Source: an uncultured Gammaproteobacteria bacterium (lineage in GTDB: Bacteria > Patescibacteriota > Patescibacteriia > Patescibacteriales > GWC2-42-12). Taken from it: a DNA stretch of 62,590 nucleotides. Shown in pieces: positions 2,695 to 59,790 of the stretch (within the stretch, counting starts at the first letter, position 1; every line of letters starts with the position of its first letter). Where the stretch lies: contig CAZHZE010000004.1 in the NCBI GenBank assembly GCA_964537265.1, forward strand, positions 1-62,590. The letters run 5' to 3'. A program made the position numbers and the translations under genes. The notes under the pieces are model-generated. The model saw only the letters and a program-made list of their open reading frames with translations. It was not told where the DNA came from and ran no database searches.

Positions 2695-2723
2695 TTGACA
2701 AACCATAATCCAAATGATAAATT
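2695..2723 (+). promoter_or_regulatory. sigma70-type promoter for ORF 2795
   Basis: TTGACA-17 nt-TAAATT with extended TG; followed by two leader hairpins and AAGGAGG. Confidence 0.6.
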
Positions 2724-2794
2724 ACAATGTTCGCCTGTATGGGTGAATTACTTATCAAATAACTGATAGGTAAACAAATTTAAGGAGGTGCTGT

Positions 2795-3172
2795 ATGGCA
2801 CAAGACGATAAAAAAAGAAAAGTTTTTAAATTAGTAAAAGCGTCAATTATTAACGGACCCGGCCTGCGAGAAATGGAACTCGCAGTAACCGACCCCTGCC
2901 CCAATGGCAGTAGGCGCAGTATAAAATTTGATTTTGAAGAAAAAGGTTGTGAAATTATTCCGGTTGTTAATGTAACTCTTGACGGAATGACCAGGGTTAA
3001 GGAAGACCCCTATGATCGTTTAAATAACTACCTCTGGAAAATTACCGGAAAAACTAAAATTTCTTTTTGCGGTCATGCCTGGGGTAACTATGATGCAATA
3101 TTTGAAACTTTAGATTATTCGCCAATTTTCAGAAAAGGAAAAATAATCTTTACTGTTTTTGAAAAAGAATAA
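2795..3172 (+). CDS. hypothetical beta-rich protein (stand-alone SD-led cassette)
   Basis: 125-aa ORF with strong SD, own promoter and downstream terminator; no recognisable motif. Confidence 0.75.
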   Translation: MAQDDKKRKVFKLVKASIINGPGLREMELAVTDPCPNGSRRSIKFDFEEKGCEIIPVVNVTLDGMTRVKEDPYDRLNNYLWKITGKTKISFCGHAWGNYDAIFETLDYSPIFRKGKIIFTVFEKE

Positions 3173-3193
3173 TAAAGAATTATAAAAAATTTC

Positions 3194-3225
3194 GCCAGTG
3201 GGTTTAAAACACCACTGGCTTTTTT
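3194..3225 (+). terminator. intrinsic terminator
   Basis: gccagtgg/ccactggc stem plus T-tract. Confidence 0.75.
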
Positions 3226-3283
3226 ATAAATAAAAAACAACCTCTAATTAAGAAGTTGTTTTTTTATATAATTATTTTATCTT

Positions 3284-4339
3284 TTATATTATTCTAAACT
3301 TTTCCAATAACTCCGGATTATTCATATGGATTTGCGCCGCTTCTTTAGAAATAACTTTTGAATCGTATAATCTCTTTAAGTCATGGTCTAAACTTACCAT
3401 CCCTTCTTTTGAACTTGTCTCAATCACGGTTTTAATTTGCGCGATTTTACTTTCTCTAATTAAATTAGATACAGCCGGGGTGTTAGTTAAAATTTCTCTG
3501 GCCGCGATTCTGCCTCCGCCGTTCTTAACTAACAGCCTTTGTGAAATTACCGCAGCTAAAGTCATAGATAACTGCATGCGGACTTGCGTCTGCTGATGAG
3601 GGGGAAAAATATCGATAATACGATCAATAGTCTGAGCCGCGCTGTAAGTATGCAAAGTCGCTAAAACTAAATGCCCGGTTTCAGCTAATGTAATCGTCGT
3701 AGCAATAGTCTCTAGATCTCGCATCTCGCCAACCATAATAACATTAGGGTCTTGTCTTAAGACATGTTTTAAGCCTTTATCAAAAGAAACCATATCATCG
3801 CCTAATTGTCTTTGGGTAATTACACTTTTATCATGCTTAAATCTAAATTCAATCGGATCTTCTAAAGTAACAATAGAACAACTTCTTTGCTGATTAATAT
3901 AATTTATCATGGCCGCCAATGAAGTAGATTTACCGCAACCAGTCGGACCAGTAACTAAAATTAAGCCTTGATTTAAATTTAATAAATCATAAACGACCTT
4001 AGGCATAAGCAAGTCTTCAAGGGTAGGAATTTCATTAGTAATAACTCTAGCCACTAAGCCTAAATTATTTCTTTCATAAAATAAATTAACCCTAAATCTT
4101 GTTTCGTTTTCGTCCTCAAAGCCGAAATCTAATTCTTTTTCGGCAATAAATTTTTTCTTTTGCTCGTCGCTAATAATGGAAAAAATTAATTGTTCAACGT
4201 CTTTTTTATTCAAGATTTTTTTAGCTTCAACCGCGGCTAATTCTCCGTCTATTCTTAATAAAACCGGGGCTCCGACAACCAAATGAATGTCTGACGCGCC
4301 TTGTTTAACCGCTAATTTAAAAATGTCTTGCATGGTCAT
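3284..4339 (-). CDS. pilT: type IV pilus retraction ATPase PilT
   Basis: ASDIHL, GPTGCGKST Walker A, TLEDPIE, LRQDPNVIMVGEMRD, TGHLVLATLH, VSNLIRE. Confidence 0.93.
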   Translation of the reverse strand: MTMQDIFKLAVKQGASDIHLVVGAPVLLRIDGELAAVEAKKILNKKDVEQLIFSIISDEQKKKFIAEKELDFGFEDENETRFRVNLFYERNNLGLVARVITNEIPTLEDLLMPKVVYDLLNLNQGLILVTGPTGCGKSTSLAAMINYINQQRSCSIVTLEDPIEFRFKHDKSVITQRQLGDDMVSFDKGLKHVLRQDPNVIMVGEMRDLETIATTITLAETGHLVLATLHTYSAAQTIDRIIDIFPPHQQTQVRMQLSMTLAAVISQRLLVKNGGGRIAAREILTNTPAVSNLIRESKIAQIKTVIETSSKEGMVSLDHDLKRLYDSKVISKEAAQIHMNNPELLEKFRII

Positions 4340-4459
4340 ATAATTTAAATTATGAATTACAAATTTATTTTTTCAATAATCAAATTAAAAATTTAATGGC
4401 CGTAGTGCTTTATCCGCTCCCCTCACTATCGTTCGGCTGGCGGAAAATTTTTAAAGATT

Positions 4460-5152
4460 TTACCACTTTTTATTTTTTAAACCTTCTTGGGCCGCGGCTA
4501 CTTGAGCTTCTTGTTTAGAAGTGCCTTTACCTTGGGAAATTAACTCATTGTTTAAATAAAGTCCGACAATAAATTCTTTAGCATGATCTGGCCCGGACTC
4601 GCTTAAAACTTTATAATGAGGAGTTATACCAAAAAGTTCTTGAGCTCTTTCCTGAAATTTTGATTTAGGATCAAGATAAAGATGGTTTTTTAAAATATTA
4701 TCCAATTTGGACAAAATAAAATTTTTAACGAATTTTTTGGCCGGCTTAATACCCTGATCTAAATAAATTGCTCCTATAATCGCTTCCATGGCATTAGCTA
4801 AAATAATTTGTCTGGCTTTTGAATTTTTATCTTTAGATTCACCTTTAGATAAATATAAATATTTATCTACGCCTAACTCATTAGCGATAGTAGCTAACAT
4901 GCGATAATTTACTAAACTAGCGCGCCAATTAGTAAGATCGCCTTCTGGAGTATCAGCATATTCATGAAATAAATTTTCAGTGACAATTATTTCTAAAACC
5001 GCGTCGCCTAAAAATTCCAGACGTTCGTTATGATGCAATTCAAAATTAGGGTGTTCATTTAAATAAGAACGGTGCACAACCGCTTGTTTTAAGAGGTCAA
5101 CATTTTTAAATTTAACACCCATTAGTTCTTCTAGCTTGGGAAAGTCTTTCAT
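4460..5152 (-). CDS. rnc: ribonuclease III
   Basis: NERLEFLGDAVL signature and C-terminal dsRBD (GPDHAKEF, SKQEAQVAAA). Confidence 0.97.
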   Translation of the reverse strand: MKDFPKLEELMGVKFKNVDLLKQAVVHRSYLNEHPNFELHHNERLEFLGDAVLEIIVTENLFHEYADTPEGDLTNWRASLVNYRMLATIANELGVDKYLYLSKGESKDKNSKARQIILANAMEAIIGAIYLDQGIKPAKKFVKNFILSKLDNILKNHLYLDPKSKFQERAQELFGITPHYKVLSESGPDHAKEFIVGLYLNNELISQGKGTSKQEAQVAAAQEGLKNKKW

Positions 5153-5238
5153 TGGATAAATGAAAATTTGATATTTGAAATTAGCAATTCTAAATCCGAA
5201 TCGCTAATTACAAATGGCAAATTATTTTAATTATTAAT

Positions 5239-5700
5239 TTACTCTTTTTTTGTTTCTTCTTCTGTCTTTTCTTTCTTTTTTATAGTGGCGCCCACATCTT
5301 TAAAAATAGCACCTAAGACTCCATTAACGAATTTTCCCGATGATTCACCGCCAAAAGCTTTGGCGATTTCAATAGCTTCGTTAATAGCGACTTTCGCCGG
5401 AATATTTTGATCAAAAATTAATTCATAAACTCCGATGCGTAATACATTTCTATCTACGATAGTAATTTGATCCAACGGCCATTCAGTCGCATACTTAGTT
5501 ATATATTGGTCTATTTCTTCTTCGTGATCGATTACGCCGTTAATGATAGCCTTAACAAAACCATGATCATTAAATTTCGGCGCAAACTGCTTAAAATTCT
5601 GTTCGATTAAATCGTTTAAATTTTGCTCCTGTTTACCATTAAAATCCCAAGAAAACAGAGTTTGCATGGCAATAGTTCTGGCGAGATGACGGTTAGACAT
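5239..5700 (-). CDS. nusB: transcription antitermination factor NusB
   Basis: [44 protein letters not shown]. Confidence 0.95.
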
Positions 5701-5783
5701 AAATAAAGTTAAAAGTAGAAAGTTAAAAGTAGAAAGTTAAAATATTTATTATTTACTTTTAACTTTATAAACTTTAGACTATT

Positions 5784-5984
5784 CTATTTTTTTTCTTTTT
5801 TAATTTTGCTTTTTATCTTTAAAACTTCACGGCCTTTATAAGAACCGCAAAAATCACAAGCGCGATGAGGTAAGACAGCTTTACCGCATTTCGGGCATTT
5901 ATTTGTTTTAACTTTTTTTAAAGCTTGGTGTGAACGGCCGCGTCGGGCTTCGCTTCTGCACCTTCGTTTTGCTGGTACTGACAT
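5784..5984 (-). CDS. rpmF: 50S ribosomal protein L32 (Zn-ribbon type)
   Basis: MSVP..RRSH-like N-terminus, CPKC and CDFC; start moved to the ATG at 5984. Confidence 0.92.
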   Translation of the reverse strand: MSVPAKRRCRSEARRGRSHQALKKVKTNKCPKCGKAVLPHRACDFCGSYKGREVLKIKSKIKKEKK

Positions 5985-6109
5985 AAAATAATAAGTCAAA
6001 AATCAAAAGTAAAAAGTCGAAAGACTTTAATTTCTGAATTTTGTATTCTTGTTAATTGTTAAATTTAATTAAATTATAACTTAAAAAACTTGTTTAAGTC
6101 AAGCTAAAA

Positions 6110-7670: not shown

Positions 7671-7679
7671 AAAAAATAA

Positions 7680-7940: not shown

Positions 7941-7946
7941 ATGTTT

Positions 7947-8243: not shown

Positions 8244-8253
8244 AAAAAATTAA

Positions 8254-15127: not shown

Positions 15128-15289
15128 AATATCTTATTTTCTAATAATATTTTAACATCTTTTGCCCATTCTTGCGAGCCGGCTTTATAAGAACAAATTT
15201 AATAATTTTTACCCTTGATTTTTTATGTTTTTTGTTGTAACATCATTTTAAAGATAAATGCAAATTAAAAACTTATAAGGGGGTATAGT

Positions 15290-15817
15290 ATGGCAAAAAA
15301 AATAGCGGTTTACGAGGTTATAAAAAAATTAGCGGGTGCGGCAGGATTTAATTTATTACCGCCGACAGGAGATTATATCAATCTTTTTTCCATAAAAAGA
15401 TTGGATTTAGACAATAAACTTCTATCTTTTTTACGACAACAGGGGTATAAAAAACAAATTCTGAACATCGATGGCAAACCCGTCATCTTCCTGGCGGACG
15501 TAAAACTAAATGACCAATCAGAGCTGATAAAAAAACATGGGTGGGGTTTATGCCAAGCTCAAAAGAAGCCCTTCATAAACATGGGCGTTCATTTTAATAT
15601 CAACAGCGGCGCCAGCATAGTCACAACTTTTCCTCGGGTTCATACTATGCATAGTATGCCCGACTTCGACAAGGCGCATCAAATCTTATTTAGCGCGTTA
15701 GCAGACTACGCCCCGGACGCGCTGGCCGAGCAAACAAAAAATTTATTTCAAAGATACGGATATTTTTCTATGTCTTTTGAAGAACTCGGCATTAAAGGGT
15801 CGGTAATAATACCTTAA
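15290..15817 (+). CDS. hypothetical protein (stand-alone SD-led cassette)
   Basis: 175 aa; AAGGGGG SD, TTGATT-17-TAACAT promoter, downstream hairpin. Confidence 0.7.
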   Translation: MAKKIAVYEVIKKLAGAAGFNLLPPTGDYINLFSIKRLDLDNKLLSFLRQQGYKKQILNIDGKPVIFLADVKLNDQSELIKKHGWGLCQAQKKPFINMGVHFNINSGASIVTTFPRVHTMHSMPDFDKAHQILFSALADYAPDALAEQTKNLFQRYGYFSMSFEELGIKGSVIIP

Positions 15818-15900
15818 AATTTTCAAATTACCACAGGCCAATTCATTTTTATGAATTGGCCATTTTTTATAAAAAAACCCATTCAGAATATGAACGGGCG

Positions 15901-16248
15901 CTACTTTTTATAGCTATATTGATGCTTATAAAACCCCTCCGGCGGAGGTATTACTTCTCTTGCGAAGGCCGACTTTGCACCGCAACCTATACGTTTAACA
16001 TACACTTCGGGCAATGGATATTTTTCACATATTCCTATACGCGTCTTATTCGCACCCGGAATTCCGCACCTTAAATCTAAACAAGGCGAAGAGTTTACAG
16101 CAAAAACTTTTTTAAGATGCACAAACATTTTTTGACAGTCTTTCGCGCAACCTTTAAATGCAAATTTATCTACCTTCCAACAGTTTGCACATGGCGAGGC
16201 ATCTTTATTAATAACCCTTGAACTTATCTCGGCTTTAGGTTTTTTCAC
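15901..16248 (-). CDS. Cys-rich hypothetical protein (GTG start, SD-led)
   Basis: AAGGAGG 8 nt before GTG; 8 Cys including CANC and CAKDC; own terminator at ~15871-15900. Confidence 0.6.
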   Translation of the reverse strand: MKKPKAEISSRVINKDASPCANCWKVDKFAFKGCAKDCQKMFVHLKKVFAVNSSPCLDLRCGIPGANKTRIGICEKYPLPEVYVKRIGCGAKSAFAREVIPPPEGFYKHQYSYKK

Positions 16249-16286
16249 TCCTTATTCCTCCTTTTTTATATTTAATTTTTTTATTT

Positions 16287-17390
16287 TTATAAATCTAACA
16301 ATACGGCCGCAATCCAGGGAAAAGCTACGGTAACGTCGCTTTGAATTATTTGGTAATAGCTATTAGTAGATAATTTATCCCAAGTTATTTTTTCTTTACC
16401 GCCAGCGCCGGAATATGAACCGTAAGACATTGGCGATGAACCAATTTCAACAAAACCGGCCCAATCTCTAATTTTGTTATGGAATCTTAAATCATGTTTT
16501 AGCGAAGGCACGACGCAAATCGGAAAATCAGCCGAGATGCCGCCGCCTAATTGCAAAAAGGCAATCGGCGCGTTTTTAGATTCTTTCATATACCAATCAT
16601 ACATAAAATGAAAATATTCTAAACCGGTTTTCATAACTTTAGCATCAATGACCATATCGCCTTTTTTCTTATGAGCGCCTTTATAAGTATAACTGGAAAA
16701 AATATTTCCCATAGTAGAATCTTCAAAGCCAGGAATAACAATCGGAATATTTTTTTTATAAGCCGCGTAAGTCCAGCAGTCGGCCGGATTAGATTGCTTG
16801 TCTGGTGAAATTAAATTTTTAGAAAATAATCGGCGAAAATATTCATGCGGAAAATAACTTTCGCCTTTTTTCTCAGCGTCTTTCCACATTTTTACCAAAT
16901 GCGGCTCCATAATACGCACACTCTCATCTTCCGGCAAAAAGGTATCGGTAATGCGGCGCAACCCGGCATCGCGTAATTCAGCTTCCTGCTCCGGAGTTAA
17001 CTCGGTATAGCGCGGAATATAAGCATAATGCGAATGCGCAACATAGCGGTAATATGATTCTTCATGATTAGCACCAGTAGCAGAAATCAAATGCACTTTA
17101 TTTTTTCTAATTAATTCAGCGAGCATCACTCCGACCTGAAAAGAGCTTAAAGCTCCGGCTAAGGTAACTACTAATTTACCGCCGTGTTTTAAATGATTTT
17201 TTAACCATAAAGCCGCCTGCTCGGTTGAGCCGCCATTACAATGGTTTAAAGTCGCGGACGCGAAAGCTGAAACCGGAGCTTTGGATTTTTTTACATAAGC
17301 GCTTAATTCGCCCATTTTAGATTTATTGCCTTCGGGTATAATTAATTTTTTTAATCCAGGGGAGAGTTTATTAATAGTAGTTTTTTTCAT
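16287..17390 (-). CDS. deoxyhypusine synthase-like protein
   Basis: TLAGALS, LISATGANHEE, PGFEDS.MG, QLGGGI..DFPICVVP, YGSYSGA..EKITWDK with conserved active-site Lys. Confidence 0.85.
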   Translation of the reverse strand: MKKTTINKLSPGLKKLIIPEGNKSKMGELSAYVKKSKAPVSAFASATLNHCNGGSTEQAALWLKNHLKHGGKLVVTLAGALSSFQVGVMLAELIRKNKVHLISATGANHEESYYRYVAHSHYAYIPRYTELTPEQEAELRDAGLRRITDTFLPEDESVRIMEPHLVKMWKDAEKKGESYFPHEYFRRLFSKNLISPDKQSNPADCWTYAAYKKNIPIVIPGFEDSTMGNIFSSYTYKGAHKKKGDMVIDAKVMKTGLEYFHFMYDWYMKESKNAPIAFLQLGGGISADFPICVVPSLKHDLRFHNKIRDWAGFVEIGSSPMSYGSYSGAGGKEKITWDKLSTNSYYQIIQSDVTVAFPWIAAVLLDL

Positions 17391-17394
17391 ATTA

Positions 17395-18246
17395 TTATTT
17401 TATAAATTTATAACTTAACAACTTATAAACTAATTTAGCGACCAAAAAATCCGATGATTTTTCATTTTTATTTGGCGCTAATTCAACAACATCAAAACCT
17501 ACAACATTTTTTTTCTTAATTACCTTTTTTAAAAAATCTAAAACCTGATACCAACCTAACCCGCCTGGCTCAGGCGTGCCGGTCGAAGGTAAAATCGATG
17601 GGTCAAAAACGTCTAAATCAATAGTAATATAAACTTGATCGGTTAACTTAGAAATGGCTTTATCCATCCAATCGGTTTTATTGTAAATATTTTCGGCAAA
17701 AAATACTCGGTCTTTTTTTATAAATGGCTTTTCAATAATATCCATGCTTCTTATACCAACCTGCACAATCGGGCATAATTCGCGGACGCGCGACATCACG
17801 CAGGCATGATTATATTTTGAACCATGGTACTCGGGACGTAAATCAGAATGCGCGTCTAATTGCAAAACTGATAAATTTTTAAATTTTTTAGCATAAGCAT
17901 TAATAACGCCGGCGGACACCGAATGTTCGCCGCCTAACGTCACGACAAATTTTCCCTTTTTTAAAAATTCAGCAGCGGCAGTTTCAACTTTTTTAACCAT
18001 TTTTTCCGGCGCGCCTTTTTCCGTTACCGGCTTGGCTGTAAAAATATTTTTTTTATAAACTTCCGAAGCGGTTTCAATATCATATAATTCCATATTGGCC
18101 GAAGCTTCCAGTATTGCTCCCGGGCCCTTGTCCGCGCCTTTACCCCAGGTCGAAGTACCATCATAAGGCACGGGCAAAATAACCGCCTTGGCGGTTTTTA
18201 AAGTTGAATATTGTTTCGGCAAGTCACAAAAATTTGTTTTATACAT
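17395..18246 (-). CDS. speB: agmatinase (ureohydrolase family)
   Basis: PYDGTSTWGKG, GGEHSVS, DAHSDLR, DLDVFDPS..TGTPEPGG. Confidence 0.9.
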   Translation of the reverse strand: MYKTNFCDLPKQYSTLKTAKAVILPVPYDGTSTWGKGADKGPGAILEASANMELYDIETASEVYKKNIFTAKPVTEKGAPEKMVKKVETAAAEFLKKGKFVVTLGGEHSVSAGVINAYAKKFKNLSVLQLDAHSDLRPEYHGSKYNHACVMSRVRELCPIVQVGIRSMDIIEKPFIKKDRVFFAENIYNKTDWMDKAISKLTDQVYITIDLDVFDPSILPSTGTPEPGGLGWYQVLDFLKKVIKKKNVVGFDVVELAPNKNEKSSDFLVAKLVYKLLSYKFIK

Positions 18247-23976: not shown

Positions 23977-24009
23977 AAAAAACACGCCTCTGAATGAGAC
24001 GTGTTTTTT
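23977..24009. terminator. bidirectional intrinsic terminator
   Basis: aaaaaacacg/cgtgtttttt stem between clpP and a convergent ORF-less unit. Confidence 0.7.
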
Positions 24010-24013
24010 ATTA

Positions 24014-24131
24014 AATAGAAGCGAGGATAATGCTGGGGATCTTTATAGAATTTAAAGGCCTATAAGTTTTAAATGCCTAATTCTATAATAAGAGGTGAGC
24101 CTCCGATCTCAGCATTACTCTCGCTTCTATT
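24014..24131 (-). ncRNA. candidate small RNA forming a long branched hairpin
   Basis: Near-perfect ~28-bp outer stem (aatagaagcgag..taatgctg..gatc with its complement), consensus promoter upstream, terminator downstream, no credible ORF. Confidence 0.5.
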
Positions 24132-24186
24132 GTTTTTAAAGATTTATTAAATTTGACTTTATTAAGCTTTTTAAGCTTAATAAATA

Positions 24187-24215
24187 AATATAGCACATAT
24201 TTTAAATATTGTCAA
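24187..24215 (-). promoter_or_regulatory. sigma70-type promoter for candidate sRNA
   Basis: TTGACA-17-TATATT with extended TG. Confidence 0.65.
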
Positions 24216-24344
24216 GTCTTTTTATAATTATTATTTATTTTTGGCTAATAATAAAGCAAAAATAAACATCACACTACTCTCTTATTAATAAGTAGGTGGA
24301 CAATGTTTACTACTTGCAAAACTATCTAGCTTGTGTTAAGCTAA

Positions 24345-24480
24345 AAAATGTTCACTAGGTCAAATAAGGTTATTTGACCGTGTACGAATATAATTATTAA
24401 TAATCAACAGCAGTCGGATAGCTAGCCCTGTAATTATTTAACGAATATTCAACCGGGCCTACAGATAAAGCAGATTAGAT
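24345..24480 (+). ncRNA. structured rny leader, possibly a 6S-like RNA
   Basis: TTGCAA-17-TAAGCT promoter at 24314-24342; nested stems with bubbles; position upstream of rny. Confidence 0.3.
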
Positions 24481-24614
24481 TAATTTACTTTTTTGTGACA
24501 TTTAGTATTTCTTCTAAAACTAAATCTTTCCCTAAAAATATTTTGTCCAAACTAAATTAAATTTGGTCCTGTTTTATTATAAAAAATTCGCCTCCGACGC
24601 TGGAATATCATTTT

Positions 24615-29998: not shown

Positions 29999-30134
29999 AC
30001 TTAATTTTTAACATTTATTAAACAAAAAGAAAAGGGCGATTAAAAATTCACGATTTTAAAAACTTAATAAGTATTTTTAAAAATAAAAAAATGGAAGCTT
30101 CAAAACGCTTCCATTTATGGAAAGGGGACGGCAA

Positions 30135-30323
30135 TTATCCGCCAAATTGATTGACTGTTTCGGCGTGAGACACTATTAATGCCGCTGATCCAGGATTTTT
30201 GCGCGAAAACTCATCAAAATCATCGCATTTTACTTTGCCTATTGCGGCCGGGCAAACATTCGAACTAGAGCAAATTCTGGCGACACAGCCACTATCCTTA
30301 AATTCATGTTCACATTTTTCCAT
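30135..30323 (-). CDS. small Cys-rich protein (SD-led cassette)
   Basis: AAAGGAGG 7 nt before ATG; 5 Cys; own terminator at ~30085-30120. Confidence 0.65.
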   Translation of the reverse strand: MEKCEHEFKDSGCVARICSSSNVCPAAIGKVKCDDFDEFSRKNPGSAALIVSHAETVNQFGG

Positions 30324-30485
30324 TATCTATCCTCCTTTATTTAATTTTTGTAAATAATTGCTTTTAGCAATTTATTTTATTGCTAAATCAATTATTTAAC
30401 AACCATATTTTAGCGCATAAAAATAAAAAAATCAATACCCGTTATTTAATAAATTGCTTGAACATTTTTAAATAAACCCATAAAA

Positions 30486-32555: not shown

Positions 32556-32659
32556 TTGACAATTATTATTTTATAAACTAATTTAAGATTAACACAAGAC
32601 AAAAATTAAGACAAAAAAATAAAATAAATTGATCTTTTGACATTTTGAAAGGAGAAATA

Positions 32660-33619
32660 ATGAAAACTATAATTTTAGGCAACGAAATTTCCAAGGTAGT
32701 AATTTCATCAATTACGGGGCACTCGGGCGGTGAAATGTTTCCATTAACTTTATTTCCCTCTTACAAAAGATTATTAAGAGTCGTAAAAGAGGCTGGAATT
32801 TACAGTTTAACTAAGTCGTCAACTTATGAAAAAAATATCGGTAATTTTATTTTAGCCAATCCTTGGACTTGGAGCTATATTCAAAGGATAGGAGAAGACG
32901 GCTTGCTTAACGCTTACGGGTTAACTAATTATGGTGTAAGGATAAACTCAGAACATATTGCTTTTGCCTGCAAATCAGGCTTCAAGGTAATACCTAATTT
33001 TTATCCGCAATTTGCCAAAGGCCGTGAACTTGCAGCCAAACAAAAAAAATCACCCGAAGCCGGACTTGAAATTGCAATTCAGGAAACACTTAAAGCAATA
33101 AGAAGATATCAAAGCTTGATGGGTAATTATTTTGAGGCAATAGAATTGAATTATTCTTGCCCCAACACCAAAGAAAAAATTAAGGAAAATGCAAACGATG
33201 CTTTGGCTTGTACTCTTGAAGTAAAACGAGCATTTCCGGAATTAATCAAAATCGCTAAAATCAGTTATGTTCATCCGGTTGAATTAGCGAAAGAGCTAAT
33301 TAAGGTTGGAGCGGATGTAATACATGCAATTAATACAATCCCGTATAATGTGGTTTATCCAAATAGCCCAAAATCACCCTTGGCCCATGTTGGAGGAGGC
33401 GGAGTGTCGGGCGCACCAGTAAGCCGCATGGCATTTAAACATAACTGCATGTTGAGAAAAAAAATTCCCGGCGCTTATATGATTATGGGTTGCGGCATTA
33501 CTTGCCTTGACGACGCTAGAAGATATTTTGAAGAAGCTGGCGCCGACATGATTAGTATCTGCACTCTGGCGCGTCTAAATCCAAAAGAAGCAGAAAAAAT
33601 CATTGAATTTTATAGTTAA
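32660..33619 (+). CDS. divergent class 1 dihydroorotate dehydrogenase-like flavoprotein (SD-led)
   Basis: TKSST, LNAYGLTN, ELNYSCPN, AINTI, GGVSG; start at the ATG after GAAAGGAG. Confidence 0.75.
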   Translation: MKTIILGNEISKVVISSITGHSGGEMFPLTLFPSYKRLLRVVKEAGIYSLTKSSTYEKNIGNFILANPWTWSYIQRIGEDGLLNAYGLTNYGVRINSEHIAFACKSGFKVIPNFYPQFAKGRELAAKQKKSPEAGLEIAIQETLKAIRRYQSLMGNYFEAIELNYSCPNTKEKIKENANDALACTLEVKRAFPELIKIAKISYVHPVELAKELIKVGADVIHAINTIPYNVVYPNSPKSPLAHVGGGGVSGAPVSRMAFKHNCMLRKKIPGAYMIMGCGITCLDDARRYFEEAGADMISICTLARLNPKEAEKIIEFYS

Positions 33620-33677
33620 AATTAAGGTATTATAAAAACCCGAGAAGTAAATCTCGGGTTCTTTTTTAAAAAAATAT

Positions 33678-35889: not shown

Positions 35890-36184
35890 AAAAAGGCAGG
35901 GTTTTTGGACCCTGCCGTAATTAAAGATTGGTTTTTTTGTTAACGCCTTTGAAGTTTAGTTTAGTTATTTTTCCAACGATTGTTTAGTTAGTTAACGCGT
36001 TTATCTTCCATGGCAATAAATAAAATTTATTTGTTAAATTATTCTCCTTTCGTTTTGGCTGGGGTTGAAAATTATGAGCGAAGATTCAACTCAGCTCCTT
36101 CTTGCTAAAATTTTTCCTCCTTTCCTCTATTAAATATAGAGATTAAGATATTTTAATATTATTATAAAAATTAATCCTAGTCAA
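35890..36184 (-). ncRNA. candidate ORF-less transcript with three SD-like motifs
   Basis: TTGACT-17-TAATAT promoter, AAAGGAGG/GAAGGAG/GAAAGGAG, hairpins, terminator at 35890-35916; only ORFs of 7 codons or fewer. Confidence 0.35.
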
Positions 36185-36198
36185 TAATTTTAATTAGT

Positions 36199-36846: not shown

Positions 36847-38439
36847 TTATACCAAACTTTTTACCATGTAACTATTTTCTAATTTATAGCCTAACTTTCT
36901 GTAATAGCCGCGCACACCAACGCCAGCAATAACGGCTATTTTTTTATAGCCAATTTCCTCGGCAATTCTTTCCGCTTCCTGCATTAACATTTTTCCTAAA
37001 CCAGCATGCTGAATTTTTTTATTTTTTCCAACCGGCACTAATTCTCCGTAAACATGCAACTCACGAATCATGGCTGGCTTGCTTTTTTCTCCTAATCTTA
37101 ACCGACAAAACCCATATAAAATTTTCCCATCTTTAGATTCAGCGGAAATAAAATATTCTACACCATCAGAAGCTTTATATTTTATAACTTTCGATTTTGA
37201 ATTTTCAACTTTAATTTTTTTTTCACCTGCTTCGCGGCATCTTATGCAGCGACATTTTACTCCGCGATCTTTCATAACCTGCCGTAAATTAGTTATCATA
37301 TTGCCGGCGATAATTGACTCACCCGGAATGTCGCGGATTAACCTTATAATTCTAACATACGGCGGCACAATTTTTTTGCATCCCACAATTAAATTTTGTA
37401 AGACTTTATCTGAATATGGTTTATACTTTCCGACTCGCCACCATTTATATAATAAACTGCCGCGCGTTACTACGGTTGGATAAAATTTTAGCTGATCTGG
37501 TTGAAAACGCTCATCTGAAAATAATTTTTTAAACATGGCCAAATCTTTTTTTGCTGTAGCTCCAGGGAGGCCTGGCATAATATGGTAAGTTACTTTAAAA
37601 CCATAATTTTTTAGCATTTCGGTTGCTTCAGCAATTTCCTTAACGCCGTGTCCGCGCTTATTTAATTTTAAAATTTTATCATCAATCGCTTGCACGCCAA
37701 GTTCTACACGAGTGCAACCTAATTCGCGCATTTCTAATAATTCTTTATCATTAATATAATCTGGACGAGTTTCTAAAGTTATACCGATAATTTTATATTT
37801 TGCATTTTCATTTTTTTTCTGCTCTTTTAGTAATATTTCTTTTAATTTTTCAATTCTAAAATTAACTTTTAACTTTCGATTCTTAATTTTTAACTTTTTT
37901 TCATACTCATTAGCCGCTTTAAAACATTGTGTTATATACCAAAACTTATAATTTACTGGTAAAACTGACCATGTTCCGCCTATTACAATTAACTCAATTT
38001 TTGTTGGCTCATGGCCATTAGCTTCTAGAGCGCGCAAACGCAATTGCACTTGTTTGTAAGGATCATAATTACAGCGAATAGCGCGCATAACCGCTGGTTC
38101 ATTAGATAAATAACTTTGCGGCACGTCTTTTTCCGTCGGGCAATAAGCACATTTTCCAGGACAAGGATATGGTTTAGTTAAAACCGCTACCGGCGCAATA
38201 CCCGACATAGTGCGCACTGATCTTTTTTTTAAAATTCCTTCCAGTTCTGATCTCTTTTTTATTTTTCCACTCTCTAATCTCTTTCTATATTCTTTTAAAA
38301 TTTCCGAGTGCAATAAAATTGCCGAACCATATTTTTTGGCCAGCTTACGTTGAATTGACATTAAATCGGCGCGCGATTTAATGCTGCTATTTAATAATTC
38401 GCTTATTAATTTTATTTTATTCTGCTTTTGGTTTGACAT
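36847..38439 (-). CDS. elp3: Elp3-type radical SAM/KAT tRNA U34 carboxymethyltransferase
   Basis: RTMSGIAPVAV, CPGKCAYCP, ETRPD, RVELGVQ, HIMPGLPG, CRCIRCRE, RELHVYG, QH.GLG..LM, GVRGYYRKLGY. Confidence 0.93.
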   Translation of the reverse strand: MSNQKQNKIKLISELLNSSIKSRADLMSIQRKLAKKYGSAILLHSEILKEYRKRLESGKIKKRSELEGILKKRSVRTMSGIAPVAVLTKPYPCPGKCAYCPTEKDVPQSYLSNEPAVMRAIRCNYDPYKQVQLRLRALEANGHEPTKIELIVIGGTWSVLPVNYKFWYITQCFKAANEYEKKLKIKNRKLKVNFRIEKLKEILLKEQKKNENAKYKIIGITLETRPDYINDKELLEMRELGCTRVELGVQAIDDKILKLNKRGHGVKEIAEATEMLKNYGFKVTYHIMPGLPGATAKKDLAMFKKLFSDERFQPDQLKFYPTVVTRGSLLYKWWRVGKYKPYSDKVLQNLIVGCKKIVPPYVRIIRLIRDIPGESIIAGNMITNLRQVMKDRGVKCRCIRCREAGEKKIKVENSKSKVIKYKASDGVEYFISAESKDGKILYGFCRLRLGEKSKPAMIRELHVYGELVPVGKNKKIQHAGLGKMLMQEAERIAEEIGYKKIAVIAGVGVRGYYRKLGYKLENSYMVKSLV

Positions 38440-38582
38440 GTTATATTTTATTTGATAGTCTTAAAAAAAGCGGCTAAAAAAATTATCGGCTGCTTGTCAT
38501 AACCGGCAACTTACGCAAGTTGCGGGTTTTTTGTATAAATGAACTTTGAAACAAAAAACATTTAGGGAGAGGAGAGCCTGCC

Positions 38583-38888
38583 ATGAATGACAACTATTAT
38601 AAAGAAAGTGATTTAAAGATAGGTGATATGGTTGTGCCTATCGAAGAAGAATTTCGCGAGACCTTCCAGTTTGGCAACACCGCTAAAAAAATGTTGGGCG
38701 CTATAGGAAATACGGGCTGCAAAATTATTGATGTAAAAAATTACCAATGTGGTTGCCAGAAAAAAAACGGTGATCAACATACTTGCGTGCTTAAAAGTAT
38801 GGGTTCAAACCAAAAAATTTGGCTGCTAATTGACGGACAAAAAACATCTTTCTCGGCAAAATTCTTTCGCTTATTAAACCTTTCCTAA
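38583..38888 (+). CDS. hypothetical protein (SD-led cassette)
   Basis: GGAGAGGAG SD, upstream boxA-like motif, terminator at ~38905-38935. Confidence 0.7.
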   Translation: MNDNYYKESDLKIGDMVVPIEEEFRETFQFGNTAKKMLGAIGNTGCKIIDVKNYQCGCQKKNGDQHTCVLKSMGSNQKIWLLIDGQKTSFSAKFFRLLNLS

Positions 38889-39009
38889 AAAACGCGCTTC
38901 GCGCCAACGGCTTGTTTCATACAAGCCGCTTTTTTTGTTAAATTTTAAATTGCCTACCTTGGTTTTAAATGTTAAAATAAACATAGTTAATTTAACCATA
39001 AACATATTC

Positions 39010-39112
39010 ACCCCGTTAAATATTAATTATGAATTTCATTTGTTAAAATGTCAAACTTCATAATAAATTTATAGGGCTAAAAAAATATGAAAAACATAAA
39101 ATTTAATGGGGT
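39010..39112. repeat. 12-bp inverted repeat pair (MITE-like)
   Basis: accccgttaaat at 39010-39021 and atttaatggggt at 39101-39112 (one mismatch). Confidence 0.4.
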
Positions 39113-44408: not shown

Positions 44409-44583
44409 AAAATAAAATTTAATAATTAAATAAAACTAACCCTAGCTAGCTTCGCCAAAATTCTCTACTTTTATTTTTAAAATAAAATTTTTTCATATAA
44501 ATATATTTAAATTAATTAATTTCAGAATTGGCGGAAAACGAAATAAAATATAATTTCGTTTTCCGCGCATAGATTGGCATGGC

Positions 44584-44745
44584 TTATTGCCAGCCAGGTT
44601 TACTCATACCCTTATTAACTTTATTGCTGCTTTTTTTATCTTTTTCTTTTTCACATTCCGGACAAACTAATTTACTTTCGTTGCCCCAACCCAATGCCAT
44701 TTCCTTAACTATCATTTTTACTCCTGAATGTTTACTACATTCCAT
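44584..44745 (-). CDS. 53-aa Zn-ribbon-like protein (not in the ORF track)
   Basis: MECSKHSGVKMIVKEMALGWGNESKLVCPECEKEKDKKSSNKVNKGMSKPGWQ; GGAGGG SD 8 nt upstream; CxxH plus CPEC. Confidence 0.6.
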   Translation of the reverse strand: MECSKHSGVKMIVKEMALGWGNESKLVCPECEKEKDKKSSNKVNKGMSKPGWQ

Positions 44746-44790
44746 AATTTTTTCCCTCCATATTTTTTTATAAAGATCATTTTAACAAAC

Positions 44791-45056
44791 AAAAAAACCT
44801 CCCATCTCTTAGGCATAGCCAAACTATGCTTAAGGGACAGAAGGTTATTCCGTGTTGCCACCCTTATTCCGAAAATAAAAAAACGCTTTCGAGCGTTTTA
44901 TTTTCGCTCATCGACTCCACCTTAATGGCGACATCGATTATCCTATGATTACGGAGGAAGCCGAGTTAACACTAACGCATTAACCACTCTTTAAGTTCAG
45001 ACCCAACCCCGATATAATTACCGGGATCTGAACGAGTTTTACGATTTTTAAGTTCT
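44791..45056 (-). promoter_or_regulatory. T-box riboswitch, probably Trp-specific, transcriptional
   Basis: T-box AAGGGTGGCAACACGG at 44864-44849; antiterminator overlapping a terminator with T7 tract; short stem at 45033-44995 with UGG in a bulge. Confidence 0.8.
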
Positions 45057-45062
45057 AAAACT

Positions 45063-47681: not shown

Positions 47682-47797
47682 AAATATTTATAAAAATAAA
47701 TTTTAAAACTCGGCCATCTGGACCGAGTTTTAAATATATTGACTTCCTAATTAAATAATTGTAAATTAATTACATCTTAAAAAGGAGGTATTAAATT

Positions 47798-47992
47798 ATG
47801 ACGGAGAAATCTAGTATCGGTGGAGGGGGCACGAGAGTGACTGAACATCATAGCAATGGTTCAAGCACTGACAAAGACTATGTCAAAGGAGAGTGCGTAG
47901 CCATTACAGATCATGATGCCAATGGCAAAAGCCACTCCCATGAAGTAGGACACGGATTACTTGGACCTTTTAAAGGAGAAAGGAAAGATTAA
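47798..47992 (+). CDS. small His-rich protein (SD-led cassette)
   Basis: TTGACT-17-TAAATT promoter, AAAAGGAGG, terminator ~48015-48050; internal repeat TEHHSNGSS/TDHDANGKS. Confidence 0.7.
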   Translation: MTEKSSIGGGGTRVTEHHSNGSSTDKDYVKGECVAITDHDANGKSHSHEVGHGLLGPFKGERKD

Positions 47993-48049
47993 ATTTTGAA
48001 ATCTAAATCACTTTAACCGCCCCCGCATTTTATTTATTGCGGGGGATTT

Positions 48050-48547
48050 TTATTCTGCCTCAACGTTTCCTGCGTTAGGATTAGGATCATTTGGATTTGG
48101 ACATTCGCCGTCAAAATTTGCTTGCGCGCTGCAATATGTTCCGTCAACTCTTTTACACATTGGCGTTGCTGTTCCTACACTTTCAACTTGCCCACCGGTA
48201 ATTGCACAATAAATTTCCGCGTCGTTTTCATAACCCGTGATTTTTAGGCCGCCAACTGGACATTTACCGAGTAAAAGCGCCCACTCTTCACATTGACGAT
48301 TATCATCAAAAAGACAAACACCATATTCTCCATTTTTATTTTTTCGCATTTCAATCTTGCCTCCTTTTTCAGCACAATTCGTAGAAGCTGGATTAGCCAT
48401 GCCAACTGGCTTATTAGAAATGGTTTCGTTTTGCTTAACTTCAGAATTATTTACTTCGCTTGTTTTTATAAACGCGTTTTGTTTTTGGCAACCAGATAAA
48501 ACAAATAAAAATAAAATCGCGCCTAAAATTAAAAATAATTTTTTCAT
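48050..48547 (-). CDS. DUF333-like lipoprotein
   Basis: Lipobox LSGC; two ANPAS..C...GG-type modules. Confidence 0.8.
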   Translation of the reverse strand: MKKLFLILGAILFLFVLSGCQKQNAFIKTSEVNNSEVKQNETISNKPVGMANPASTNCAEKGGKIEMRKNKNGEYGVCLFDDNRQCEEWALLLGKCPVGGLKITGYENDAEIYCAITGGQVESVGTATPMCKRVDGTYCSAQANFDGECPNPNDPNPNAGNVEAE

Positions 48548-54166: not shown

Positions 54167-54167
54167 T

Positions 54168-55190: not shown

Positions 55191-55191
55191 T

Positions 55192-55779
55192 ATGGCAGTT
55201 GATACAAAAATCTACGACCAAATTTTTTTTAATAACACGTTAAAATTAGAAAGCCCGTCAGCCAAAGCTTTCGTTTCTATTATAATAAAATATTTCCAAC
55301 CAAAATCAGTTATTGATATTGGCTGCGGCATCGGTATTTATCTGGCTGAAATGGAAAAAAACAATATAAAAATATTAGGTTATGACGGTTCGCCGGCAGC
55401 TATTGCCGGATCACTTGTCGGCAAAAAAATAAAATTTTATGATTTATGCCGCCCGCTAAAAATAAAACGAAAATTTGATTTATGCTTATGCTTGGAAGTT
55501 GCTGAACATTTGGAAAAAAAATATACAAAGACACTAATTAAAAATTTAATAAATTTATCTTCAGTTATAATTTTTACCGCCGCTACTCCGGGTCAAGGTC
55601 CAAAGAGTATAGGGCACATAAATGAACAGCCCCATAAATATTGGCAAAAATTATTTGCAGAAAAAAATTTTAAATTAAATAAAAAATTAACCGAAAAAAT
55701 AAGGCAAGAAATGATTAATAAAAAAGTAGTTTGGTGGATTACTAAAAATTTAATGATATTTCAAAAAAATGAAAAATAA
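55192..55779 (+). CDS. class I SAM methyltransferase (glycan-locus type)
   Basis: IDIGCGIG, LEVAEHL, TAATPGQG..GHINEQ..YW. Confidence 0.82.
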   Translation: MAVDTKIYDQIFFNNTLKLESPSAKAFVSIIIKYFQPKSVIDIGCGIGIYLAEMEKNNIKILGYDGSPAAIAGSLVGKKIKFYDLCRPLKIKRKFDLCLCLEVAEHLEKKYTKTLIKNLINLSSVIIFTAATPGQGPKSIGHINEQPHKYWQKLFAEKNFKLNKKLTEKIRQEMINKKVVWWITKNLMIFQKNEK

Positions 55780-57112: not shown

Positions 57113-57228
57113 AATTTTATCTATAAAAGCCAAAATATTTTTATCGGGTTGACAAAATCAAAAATTTTTGCTAAAATTATATTAGATAATACAAAATCAT
57201 ATTATCTATAAAAAACAAAAACAAAAAA

Positions 57229-57477
57229 ATGTCATTAGCAAAAAATCATGCCAATTACTTTAATTTAGGTCATATTGGCTGGAAATATTACAACACAATA
57301 AAAAAGAAAGCAGTGGAGCAGGAGTTCAGTTGGTCTGGACTCTTTATAAGCTTGTCCATTGCTTTTTTTATTATTATGGTTAGCGCTATGATGCTTAATT
57401 TTATTTTTAATTACTTAGACGGGAATCAAAACAATAATTTTTCTAATCAAATTTATTATCTAGAAAAAAATATTTAA
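57229..57477 (+). CDS. small membrane protein
   Basis: One TM helix; TTGACA-17-TAAAAT promoter upstream. Confidence 0.55.
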   Translation: MSLAKNHANYFNLGHIGWKYYNTIKKKAVEQEFSWSGLFISLSIAFFIIMVSAMMLNFIFNYLDGNQNNNFSNQIYYLEKNI

Positions 57478-57540
57478 AATAATTTGATATATTATTTTTT
57501 AATATAATCTGCGGCTAAAACAAAAAAAGCTGCAACTATC

Positions 57541-57757
57541 GATCATTTAAAAAAACAAACAGGAGGATTAAAAACTAAAACATATGAAGAAGCTGTGTTA
57601 ATTTAACAGCTTAGAAAATTAGAAAAAACCAAAAAAAATAGAAATAAAAAAATCAGAAAATCTGCCAAATTAACACAGCTCCCCTTCCTGCTTTATCATC
57701 ACCTGGTAGAGCGAGCATGGGGAAAAACACCGCCGGGACTCTAGGGGCGGTGTTTTT
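57541..57757 (+). ncRNA. candidate structured ORF-less RNA
   Basis: 13-nt perfect long-range complement gctgtgttaattt/aaattaacacagc; SD pairing with ttcctg; strong terminator. Confidence 0.4.
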
Positions 57758-57883
57758 TTATTTTTAATAAATATGATATAATAACTTTAAGCGTAAAAGC
57801 TCTTTAAACAGTTCCAGGGAGGAACTGTTTTTATTACATTTAATAAACGATCTTTTAAATTATAATTATGGAGGTAGTTGAAA

Positions 57884-59293
57884 ATGGCAGAAAAAAATAA
57901 AGGCGAAGATGGTTGGAGTGAGCAAAATAATTTTCCGGAAAAAGTTTATGTAGTTGATACTAGTGCCATCGAACATTCTATCGACGTATTTGAAAATCTT
58001 CGGGAAGGTGGTAAAAATTTAATCGTTATGCCTTTTGTCGTTTGGGAGGAATTAGACGGACATAAATCCGGCAGTGACTTTAAAGGACGAATTGCCAGAA
58101 CGGTTATTAGGCAATTTAGCGAATTGCTAGACAAAAAAGATAAATCAGTAACATTTTTGGGTTATGAAATGCCTCCGGCCAAATCTGGCAAATTAAGAAG
58201 GGACAAAAATGACCACCTGATTATCGCCACCGCCTACTTTGCGCAAAAAAATAAATATAGAGGCAAAACAGTCGTTTTAGTCACCCAAGACAACAACATG
58301 AGGGCCTTGGCTCTGCATTTAGGATTAACCACGGAATTAGTAAAAGATAATGTCAGCAAACAAATAATTACCAAAAATTACGATTTGAGCAAGAAAAAAA
58401 GCAACCCTCGAGTGTTGGCCAGAGAAATAAAAGAAAACGGCGTTTTTCCTTACAGAAAAAAGTACGGCGAAATCCCGCAAAACGGAATTATTATATGCAA
58501 AACAGATTGCGGAGGGGTAAAAAAGGGCTGGGTAAATCAATTTATTGCCATTAGGCAAGGTGATGAATTTCGAATAATAAACCACAACATAAATATTTTC
58601 GGCATCACACCAAAAGCAAACAATGGCGATATTAATTGGGGGCAATTTCATGCCATGGCTGTTCTTAAAGATCAAAGAATCCCTTTGATTACTTTAACGG
58701 GCAAGGCCGGCACAGCCAAGACTTTTTTAGCTATTTTGGCAGGAATCAGCCAAACAAAGGAGTACAAAAAAATTCTTATCAGCCGAGCAACAATTCAACT
58801 TGGTTACCGCGACAGATTGGGTTTTAGCCCTGGTGACATTGAAGATAAAATGAAGCCATGGTTATTGCCAATTTACGACAACATCGAAGTAATAAAAGAC
58901 ATATTGCCGTCAATGAAAGATAAAATAGATGAAATGATTAAAAAAAGAGTTGTGGAAATACTGGATTTAGATAAAATTCGCGGACGTAGCATCCAAAACT
59001 GTTTTATTATTATTGACGAAACCCAGAACTTGCCGCCAGACCAAGTTTTAGCCATCGCTACTCGAGCGGCTGAAGGCAGCAAAATAATTTTCACCGGCGA
59101 TTTTACTTCAAGCCAGATTGATGTGCCTTATTTGGACGAAAAATCTAATGGCTTATCAATCTTGACCGAAGTTATGCGAGGCAGCCAAATGTTCGCCACT
59201 GTGCACCTTGATCAAGCTATACGCTCGCCTTTGGTTCAAGAAATTCTTAACCGTTGGGCAGCTAGAAATGAAGCTTTGTGCACTAAGGATTAA
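57884..59293 (+). CDS. PIN-domain/PhoH-family ATPase (PhoH2/YlaK-like), SD-led
   Basis: VVDTS, EELD, ND, VTQD PIN residues; GKAGTAKT, IRGRS, IIDETQN, TGD..QID. Confidence 0.85.
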   Translation: MAEKNKGEDGWSEQNNFPEKVYVVDTSAIEHSIDVFENLREGGKNLIVMPFVVWEELDGHKSGSDFKGRIARTVIRQFSELLDKKDKSVTFLGYEMPPAKSGKLRRDKNDHLIIATAYFAQKNKYRGKTVVLVTQDNNMRALALHLGLTTELVKDNVSKQIITKNYDLSKKKSNPRVLAREIKENGVFPYRKKYGEIPQNGIIICKTDCGGVKKGWVNQFIAIRQGDEFRIINHNINIFGITPKANNGDINWGQFHAMAVLKDQRIPLITLTGKAGTAKTFLAILAGISQTKEYKKILISRATIQLGYRDRLGFSPGDIEDKMKPWLLPIYDNIEVIKDILPSMKDKIDEMIKKRVVEILDLDKIRGRSIQNCFIIIDETQNLPPDQVLAIATRAAEGSKIIFTGDFTSSQIDVPYLDEKSNGLSILTEVMRGSQMFATVHLDQAIRSPLVQEILNRWAARNEALCTKD

Positions 59294-59401
59294 TTAAATA
59301 AACAACAGGAGCCGGGAACAAATTTCCGACTCCTCTTTTTTTATCTATTGATTTTAATTAAAAATTATAATAATATAAAATAAAAACAGGAGGTTATAAA
59401 A

Positions 59402-59680
59402 ATGTTTATTACATTTATAATTATTTTGACCTTTTTAATAGTAAAAATAAGGAGACTTTTAAAAGAAAAAAGACGTAGATTTAAAAAAGGTCTGATAAAA
59501 GGTGGCGAGGAATTAATACAATATATGAATTCGCAGCAGATAACAGAAATACAGCAATCTATTATAGACTGCCAGGAGGCTCTTAAGGCAGAAAAAACTG
59601 TACTACTCAGCTATTTGACAGGGCTATCTATAATGATTGTTTTAGCAATTATATTCTTATTTACAATAATAAAATTTTAA
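59402..59680 (+). CDS. small two-TM protein (SD-led cassette)
   Basis: TTGATT-17-TAATAT promoter, CAGGAGG, terminator at ~59693-59718. Confidence 0.7.
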   Translation: MFITFIIILTFLIVKIRRLLKEKRRRFKKGLIKGGEELIQYMNSQQITEIQQSIIDCQEALKAEKTVLLSYLTGLSIMIVLAIIFLFTIIKF

Positions 59681-59790
59681 GGCAGCAACCATAGAGGAAT
59701 TATATTCCTCTTTTTTATTTGTTTTAATTATTGTATAATAAAATTATAGAGACGCATTATTATGCGTCTTTACATAATAAATTTTGATTT

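Follow-up and report, generated by a model that had tools for sequence, protein, structure and literature searches.

Translation initiation that does not depend on the Shine–Dalgarno (SD) sequence has been described for the Bacteroidia, in Flavobacterium johnsoniae (Baez 2019, PMC6847099; Jha 2021, PMC7797042; McNutt 2023, PMC9976891). In these bacteria the anti-SD is sequestered by bS21, bS18 and bS6 and the ribosomes are SD-blind; ribosomes that lack bS21, together with rpsU, represent conditional anti-SD use in Flavobacteria (PMC9976891, PMC13000453). Part of the Parcubacteria lacks the anti-SD motif (Tsurumaki 2022, PMC9297842), and bS21 is reported to be often missing from the Parcubacteria (PMC9297842). 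Here we describe a stretch of 62,590 nucleotides, contig CAZHZE010000004.1 (hereafter the window), from a Falkowbacteria-like member of the Patescibacteria, within the candidate phyla radiation (CPR), in which ten genes start behind strong SDs and the remainder do not.

There are two sequence classes of start sites in this DNA, and the SD-led class is enriched among variable, orphan, Cys-rich and terminator-bounded units. Our preferred reading, to which we assign a probability of roughly 60%, is that an SD-independent core coexists with a flexible pool of genes relying on SD pairing, and that cassettes enter from this pool with the SD as a portable start signal. Like the Bacteroidia, the lineage is nearly free of SDs in the loci covered here and has a small number of strong-SD genes; a canonical anti-SD was read in 36 relatives, and the A-rich, G-poor starts, with adenines near −6 and −12, recall the Bacteroidia pattern. 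However, the phylum differs, and instead of rpsU or prfB the SD-led set takes in about 6% of genes, most of them variable orphans. The Parcubacteria without an anti-SD belong to the same superphylum and have likewise left the SD paradigm, but in all 36 Falkowbacteria-like relatives with a readable 16S rRNA the anti-SD is intact; here the mRNAs have changed, not the rRNA. In the searchable literature we found no report connecting strong SDs with the flexible genes of any SD-poor lineage in the CPR.

Two classes of start site

The strength of the SD was measured at every gene start as the duplex energy of positions −20 to −3 against ACCUCCUUU, and genes with a dG of −9 kcal/mol or lower were called SD-led; the selection of open reading frames (ORFs) ignored the presence of an SD. 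The energies are bimodal, with ten starts between −9 and −13 kcal/mol and the remaining ~56 genes at −5 or above. The ten starts lie at 2795, 15290, 32660, 38583, 47798, 57884 and 59402 on the plus strand and at 16248, 30323 and 44745 on the minus strand, and carry AGGAGG, GGAGG, AGGAG or GGGGG at a spacing of 5–9 nt. These are the same ten that a first-pass annotation of this DNA had picked out, and the housekeeping genes that it had listed as lacking an SD (infB, clpP, rny, HU, yebC, glgA and smc) all have a dG of at least −5. For the start at 44745 the SD (GGAGGG) is borne out and the strand had to be corrected to minus (coding sequence 44745..44584, 53 amino acids), while the starts at 32660 and 57884 are ATGs just within TTG-started ORFs of the mechanical ORF list. 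A strong SD precedes 0.33% of the other ATG, GTG and TTG triplets in the window, so 0.22 would be expected among 66 starts, against 10 observed (binomial p = 3e-14). There are 13 AGGAGG hexamers in the window, five of them 6–9 nt ahead of SD-led starts. The idea that an SD compensates for a structured start region found no support, as the folding energy of the interval from −30 to +30 is not significantly different between the classes (p = 0.11).

The same two classes are found across the lineage. A search with TrpS, keeping one genome per species, gave 80 related loci (numbered with an L below), nearly all labelled Candidatus Falkowbacteria, Parcubacteria or Patescibacteria; the complete Falkowbacteria chromosomes CP066698.1 and OW818634.1 are among their sources. 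Together with the window they hold 1,229 ORFs, in about 1 Mb of loci rather than whole genomes. SD energy is again bimodal, some 6% of ORFs falling at or below −9, and for the 67 SD-led ORFs the spacing peaks at 5–9 nt. Among ORFs of at least 80 amino acids 45/769 (5.9%) are SD-led. Counting a family as conserved when at least five loci have it, SDs precede 32/244 locus-specific genes (13%) but only 10/489 genes of conserved families (2%; odds ratio 7.2, p = 5.5e-9), and no conserved family in the lineage is consistently SD-led. A comparison of SD energy with gene conservation, on a genome-wide scale, had been proposed as a check in the first-pass annotation, as had an inspection of the anti-SD. 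The latter proved canonical (GAUCACCUCCUUUCU) in the 36 relatives with a readable 16S. In these 36 of the 80 loci, all among L007–L080, the 16S gene adjoins trpS and its 3′ end is GGATCACCTCCTTTCT; in L030 the end reads GGATTACCTCC, a C-to-T change within GGATCA that leaves the CCUCC core intact.

What do the SD-less starts have in place of an SD? In 497 conserved SD-less genes G makes up 3–10% of positions −13 to −1, and A reaches ~0.6 at −5/−6, ~0.5 at −11/−12 and 0.44 at −3 (these values are frequencies only). U stands at −1 in 78% of them. Operon-first (n = 295) and internal (n = 154) SD-less genes have the same context, with U at −1 in 74–81%, against 47% of SD-led genes (p = 1.3e-5). Leaderless mRNAs, in which the A/T pattern would be a −10 box and transcription would start at the ATG, were considered and rejected: internal operon genes look alike and −10-like hexamers do not cluster with their ends at −7, which argues that the pattern is a translational context and not a promoter. 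Adenines at −3, −6, −12 and −13 are among the positive start determinants given for the Bacteroidia (PMC6847099). The adenine positions here recall these, but U is strongly favoured at −1 and A does not stand out at −3; the passages of PMC6847099 consulted do not mention such a U.

Ten cassettes between conserved genes

Pfam, NCBIfam, PHROGs and PADLOC are empty for eight of the ten SD-led genes, as had been claimed, against 12/56 SD-less genes (Fisher p = 6.6e-4). The two with a family, numbered like the others in the series F1 to F10 below, are F8, a PhoH2-like protein with PIN and PhoH domains, and F5, which is dihydroorotate-dehydrogenase (DHODH)-like. The implied extension, that orphans as such are SD-led, did not hold: those 12 SD-less genes are orphans too, yet in G+C at third codon positions (GC3) and codon usage they look native. 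For the SD-led genes of the window GC3 is 0.33, compared with 0.28 in SD-less genes (p = 0.004), and the codon adaptation index relative to core codon usage is 0.60 versus 0.68 (p = 4e-4). Of the richness in Cys and His that had been reported, the Cys part stands (3.4% in SD-led against 1.1% in SD-less proteins, p = 0.002; lineage-wide 2.2% against 1.2%, p = 1.7e-5), whereas richness in His is confined to the gene at 47798. The first-pass annotation had given most of these genes their own promoter and terminator. A hairpin and T-run lie within 60 nt downstream of 9/10, the gene at 44745 having a hairpin without a T-run, but sigma-70-like matches are no commoner than in shuffles of the AT-rich window DNA (87 vs 80, 100 vs 79 and 94 vs 84), so the promoter part is not confirmed.

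The window has two collinear relatives, 80–90% identical to it in DNA: relative A (CAYSKV010000005.1; loci L001 and L096) and relative R (a 65-kb ENA contig; loci L092, L089 and L094). Synteny with them confirms that the cassettes are wedged between conserved operons; the neighbours are pilT, rnc, the deoxyhypusine synthase gene, recQ, folD, the ELP3-like gene, tsaD, trpB, glgA and smc, with no prophage setting. Presence and absence at syntenic sites, a further check that had been suggested, shows F3, F4, F6, F7 and F10 to be cleanly absent or replaced in relatives. In total, of the SD-led genes that could be tested, 5/8 are missing or replaced at the corresponding site of one or more close relatives, compared with 6/44 SD-less genes (p = 0.007); since two of these six are calling artefacts, the comparison is conservative.

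F3 and F6 vary as indels. F3 (15877–16262, minus strand; SD AGGAGG at 16262–16257, GTG-started coding sequence at 16248–15901, terminator at 15899–15877) encodes 115 amino acids with 8 Cys and is placed 38 nt past the deoxyhypusine synthase gene. It is absent from relative R by a clean indel of ~365 bp, window positions 15878–16262 being 21 bp there. The F3 family is small, with 20 representatives in 1.84e9 proteins and 6 invariant Cys. Its members in two other genomes, in unrelated contexts, are SD-led, while their neighbours (rpsL, rpsG, fusA, rpoA, rplQ, rplM, rpsI, rpmE, rpsB and tsf) are SD-less. F6 (38566–38928, plus strand; SD GGGAGAGGAG at ~38566–38575, coding sequence at 38583–38888, terminator at 38908–38928) is an orphan of 101 amino acids with 4 Cys. 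L001 and L002 have ~32 bp in place of the 650 bp of window 38430–39079, and F6 is missing from L004 too; relative R has it at 81% identity with its SD kept. Terminator-like hairpins occur upstream of F6 (38506–38523, plus strand) and of F8 (57550–57575, plus strand) as well, and may insulate both sides or act as leader attenuators.

At other sites the cassette is replaced or the synteny breaks. F4 (30089–30336, minus strand; SD AGGAGG at 30336–30331, coding sequence at 30323–30135, terminator at 30116–30089) encodes 62 amino acids with 5 Cys, and its 90%-identity cluster is a singleton. Relative A has a formyltransferase-like gene at the site, and in L014, which also lacks F4, the RecQ and methyltransferase genes are contiguous. 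F7 (47783–48050, plus strand; SD AGGAGGT at 47783–47789, coding sequence at 47798–47992, GC-rich hairpin and T-run at ~48017–48050) encodes a His/Gly-rich protein of 64 amino acids, with a promoter-like consensus match TTGACT at ~47739 on the same strand. Synteny breaks at this point in relatives R and A, neither of which has F7; the gene recurs at 90% amino-acid identity in another genome (L085–L088) beside the same DUF333 gene; in the leader of this homologue AGGAGGT and TTGACT are kept and the rest has diverged.

F10 (44538–45059, minus strand) has its SD GGAGGG at 44759–44754, nine bases upstream of the start, and encodes 3 Cys; the hairpin lies at 44566–44538, upstream of trpB2–trpS. In relatives A and R and in L002 the leader, SD, ATG and hairpin are conserved and the 175-bp coding part is exchanged for 415 bp with two SD-led ORFs (64 and 66 amino acids), the former of which has weak similarity to F10 (E 0.005). 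The leader (45059–44830) matches the T-box model RF00230 at 39.8 bits (E 1.5e-7), under the gathering score of 93. The match covers the full span of the model and includes the conserved T-box sequence AAUAAGGGUGGCAACACG; a tryptophan operon follows the leader, and a promoter-like TTGACA-16-TATACT precedes it (region to 45090, minus strand). The leader is T-box-like and not a certified member of the family.

The other five cassettes lie on the plus strand. F1 (2783–3226; SD AGGAGG at 2783–2788, coding sequence at 2795–3172, hairpin and T-run at ~3193–3226) encodes an orphan of 125 amino acids with 3 Cys, downstream of a promoter-like consensus match TTGACA-17-TAAATT with TG (2695–2723, plus strand). 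F2 (15278–15861; SD AGGGGG at 15278–15283, coding sequence at 15290–15817, terminator at 15836–15861) encodes an orphan of 175 amino acids. Each has a single homologue among 5.8e9 protein clusters, at the same site in relative R: that of F1 is 60% identical, in the same SD context, and that of F2 83% identical with the SD AAGGGGGG. F5 (32650–33660; SD AGGAG at 32650–32654, coding sequence at 32660–33619, terminator at 33637–33660) encodes 319 amino acids with a DHODH-like fold (Pfam DHO_dh, 6.8e-19; phrog_14943), well under the NCBIfam equivalog cut-offs. In relative A it is 73% identical with its SD kept, and no match was found at the site in L002, L014 and L045.

F8 (57870–59340; SD GGAGGT at 57870–57875, coding sequence at 57884–59293, hairpin and T-run at ~59309–59340) encodes 469 amino acids. 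It shares with PhoH2, a PIN–PhoH RNA helicase/RNase, a PIN_4 domain (2.3e-20) followed by a PhoH ATPase domain (2.3e-43) over the full length, and matches phrog_2765 (1.9e-67). However, it scores 142.5 bits against NCBIfam PhoH2 (NF053827), far under the equivalog cut-off of 680, no upstream PhoAT-like partner was identified, and the downstream ORF is F9 (59388–59711; SD AGGAGGT at 59388–59394, coding sequence at 59402–59680, terminator at 59693–59711), a membrane-like orphan of 92 amino acids. Both are kept in L102, F8 at 92% amino-acid identity with its SD and F9 with the SD AAGGAGGT; L011 has two unrelated SD-led genes of ~330 amino acids at the site of F8.

The exchange also runs in the other direction. 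Behind clpP and ruvB, close to tRNA-Ser and in the gap that separates the HD-domain gene from glyA, relatives have SD-led genes where the window has only short spacers. The spacer between glyA and the HD-domain gene (35997–36194, 198 bp) corresponds to 1.2–1.6 kb in relatives A and R and in L002, with two SD-led genes (51–52 and 142–144 amino acids). An AGGAGG at 36121 (minus strand) in this spacer has no ORF behind it and is a candidate relic of a lost cassette. In relative R an integrase stands beside an ArsR/thioredoxin/ArsP/DsbD-like island (L094, 1087–5913) that the window does not have; the genes of this island lack an SD and start in the native context, and thus some mobile DNA of the clade does not use the SD. 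Metagenome contigs covering the window show F4, F5, F7 and F10 in related strains and are too fragmented for scoring presence and absence within populations.

The SD-led ORFs behave as genes where orthologues could be compared. Ratios of nonsynonymous to synonymous substitution rates (dN/dS) are 0.18 for F1, 0.17 for F2, 0.11 for F5 and 0.07 for F6, and the F7 pair has a dN of 0.05 with dS saturated; neighbouring housekeeping genes give 0.03–0.13 and SD-less orphans 0.12–0.20. The SD is kept in orthologues of F1, F2, F5, F6, F7, F8 and F9, although the flanking leader has diverged for F2, F5 and F7. With 7/10 kept with their SD in some species-level relative, and the five tested under purifying selection, the SD-led genes are not mere junk insertions. 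F4 and F10, for which we found near-identical copies only, are the least certain of the ten. Structure gave little further information: AlphaFold models of the F3 family (pLDDT 60) and F2 (pLDDT 42) are too poor for fold searches, and sequence searches of the PDB returned no match. RNA runs share 5–12% of words with the window, probably via tRNA genes, and are thus uninformative on expression in this organism.

The organism and the rest of the window

The window has a G+C content of 33% and five tRNA genes. It begins inside a 23S rRNA gene (1–2194, minus strand), which is unlinked to 16S, no such gene lying upstream. The 2194 nt of this gene map to model positions 1–1969 only, a surplus of ~225 nt that points to a possible insertion, and a perfect promoter-like TTGACA-16-TATAAT lies at 2554–2527 on the minus strand (region 1–2554 with the 23S gene). 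A Pfam scan of the ~66 ORFs identified pilT, rnc, nusB, rpmF, queA, ruvB, an RRM protein, deoxyhypusine synthase, agmatinase and a GH1 glycosidase; infB, rbfA, nrnA, clpP, rny, ymdB, HU, recQ, folD, glyA and an ELP3-like radical-SAM protein; and phosphoglucomutase, trpS, trpB2, tsaD, pgi, yebC, ruvC, two glgA genes, a GH57 enzyme and smc. The 90%-identity cluster of RNase Y includes Falkowbacteria proteins, and the DNA of the window occurs in wastewater and digester metagenomes, at a depth of about 10x in wastewater samples.

Some neighbouring features deserve a mention of their own. Deoxyhypusine synthase beside agmatinase (16287–18246) and the ELP3-like radical-SAM/GNAT protein (36847–38439) are of types commoner in archaea and eukaryotes, and both are conserved in the relatives. 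Upstream of rny, ~610 nt of non-coding DNA (24004–24614) is 68% identical to relative A and has no Rfam match; a long leader and an RNA not yet described are both conceivable. In relative A two SD-led mini-ORFs are inserted just before the counterpart of this stretch.

Origin and role of the SD-led genes

How might the two classes have come about? Vertically inherited genes, operon-first and internal alike and including the ribosomal-protein genes seen in two other genomes, would start without SD pairing, via a G-depleted, A/U-rich region. Their ribosomes may be recruited through this context, perhaps via bS1 as proposed for the Bacteroidia. A minority of genes would pair with the canonical anti-SD through AGGAGG, GGAGG or GGGGG 5–9 nt before the start. 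This SD-led class belongs mostly to the flexible genome: it comprises small, lineage-restricted, Cys-rich proteins together with the PhoH2-like and DHODH-like ones, encoded alone or in pairs between conserved genes, with their own terminator, and is gained, lost or replaced between relatives of 80–90% DNA identity. The cassettes would be drawn from a pool of genes for which the SD serves as a portable start signal and, once they are resident, the SD would be kept under selection. With few other mRNAs competing for the anti-SD, such a signal could give efficient and self-sufficient recruitment of ribosomes without the native leader architecture. The conservation of the SD in orthologues suggests that the ribosomes of this lineage are not SD-blind, unlike those of the Bacteroidia. 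Horizontal acquisition of the SD-led genes, and their origin, we infer from these patterns.

Several observations weigh against this reading. The compositional shift is weak lineage-wide (gene GC minus locus GC +0.007, p = 0.09). No donor of the cassettes is known, and the orphans are almost without homologues anywhere. The relatives also have accessory genes that are SD-less (a Fer4 protein, NUDIX, IMPDH and the integrase-flanked ars-like island), which means that the SD marks only part of the flexible genome. Persistence of 7/10 cassettes across species-level relatives makes ‘recent acquisition’ too strong a term for them. The anti-SD was read in 36 relatives other than the organism of the window and its closest relatives (L001–L006, R and A), and the use of the SD by ribosomes is suggested by its conservation.

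Retention of the anti-SD, though ~98% of conserved genes do not use it, would also suit a native conditional regulon, the second option that the first-pass annotation had offered. The anti-SD would then be normally unavailable or rarely used, and SD-bearing mRNAs would be favoured by a ribosome subpopulation or state, so that the SD would act as a control layer over PhoH2 and small Cys-rich proteins of the stress type. SDs conserved in orthologues under purifying selection, the Cys enrichment common to SD-led genes across the lineage, the T-box-like leader ahead of one SD-led ORF and the Bacteroidia precedent (PMC9976891, PMC13000453) all fit such an arrangement. That said, membership shifts between relatives at 80–90% DNA identity, with different genes at the same sites, and gene content this variable is unlike a fixed regulon. 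Nor is any conserved family consistently SD-led, the genes share no upstream motif or repeat besides the SD, and the reported frequent absence of bS21 from Parcubacteria would remove the known sequestration partner. We think a regulon unlikely.

The other option had been moron-like acquired modules, and this is partly supported: stand-alone, flexible units between conserved genes are indeed what we see, and the ‘acquired’ part is backed by synteny and composition, but the phage origin that ‘moron’ implies is unsupported. Like phage morons and other autonomous accessory cassettes, these are single genes of atypical composition and variable presence between conserved genes, with an SD and, in 9/10, a terminator of their own. 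The PhoH and DHODH-like families occur in phages (phrog_2765 and phrog_14943), and an integrase lies nearby in relative R. A wider form of this reading takes the cassettes for morons or for remnants of mobile elements (prophage, integron or miniature inverted-repeat transposable element (MITE)-type cassettes) that carry their own expression signals. However, none of the cassettes in the window is bordered by phage genes for structure or replication, by an integrase or by attachment repeats. What their flanks have in common is short, low-complexity A/T matches rather than integron- or MITE-like border repeats; the cassettes are scattered over 57 kb, and an integrase is missing from the window altogether. 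PHROGs has no match for any of the eight orphans. Scans of viral contigs gave no match for F1 and F2 and only PhoH matches at 29% for F8; phage searches gave none for F3 and F5 and only PhoH matches at 28–33% for F8. The integrase-linked island of relative R is, moreover, SD-less. An origin from phages or such elements is improbable in our judgement. It is hardly credible that the pattern is an artefact, with G-rich motifs arising by chance or small ORFs being accepted only because of an SD. Small SD-less ORFs are indistinguishable from noise, which makes the count of SD-less orphans uncertain, and F4 and F10 lack orthologues beyond near-identical copies. But the ORFs were picked regardless of the SD, spurious ones would inflate the SD-less orphan class and so leave the reported association conservative, and the F3 family has its invariant Cys; dN/dS and the chance test (p = 3e-14) largely refute this explanation.

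A bolder form of the SD-independent core and SD-using pool is that SD pairing has been abandoned by the vertical genome and lives on as a translation channel reserved for the mobile or flexible pool, possibly conditional as in the bS21-free ribosomes of Flavobacterium. This we put forward tentatively, and with more doubt than belief. If it is true, selection from accessory genes would explain why an SD-poor lineage retains its anti-SD, and a strong SD would allow part of the accessory genome of uncultured Patescibacteria to be marked from sequence alone.

SD-poor genomes that keep the anti-SD are well studied only in the Bacteroidia. Here a second, unrelated lineage would show that condition, differing in its start signature (the U at −1) and in the kind of genes that bear SDs, and a testable reason is offered for the persistence of an anti-SD that core genes do not use. 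For the annotation of CPR metagenome bins, gene callers trained on the SD will mis-set the starts of core genes, while strong SDs flag candidate accessory genes. Finally, the results point to a pool of fast-turnover, small Cys-rich proteins in presumed symbionts, which are plausible players in interactions with hosts or competitors.

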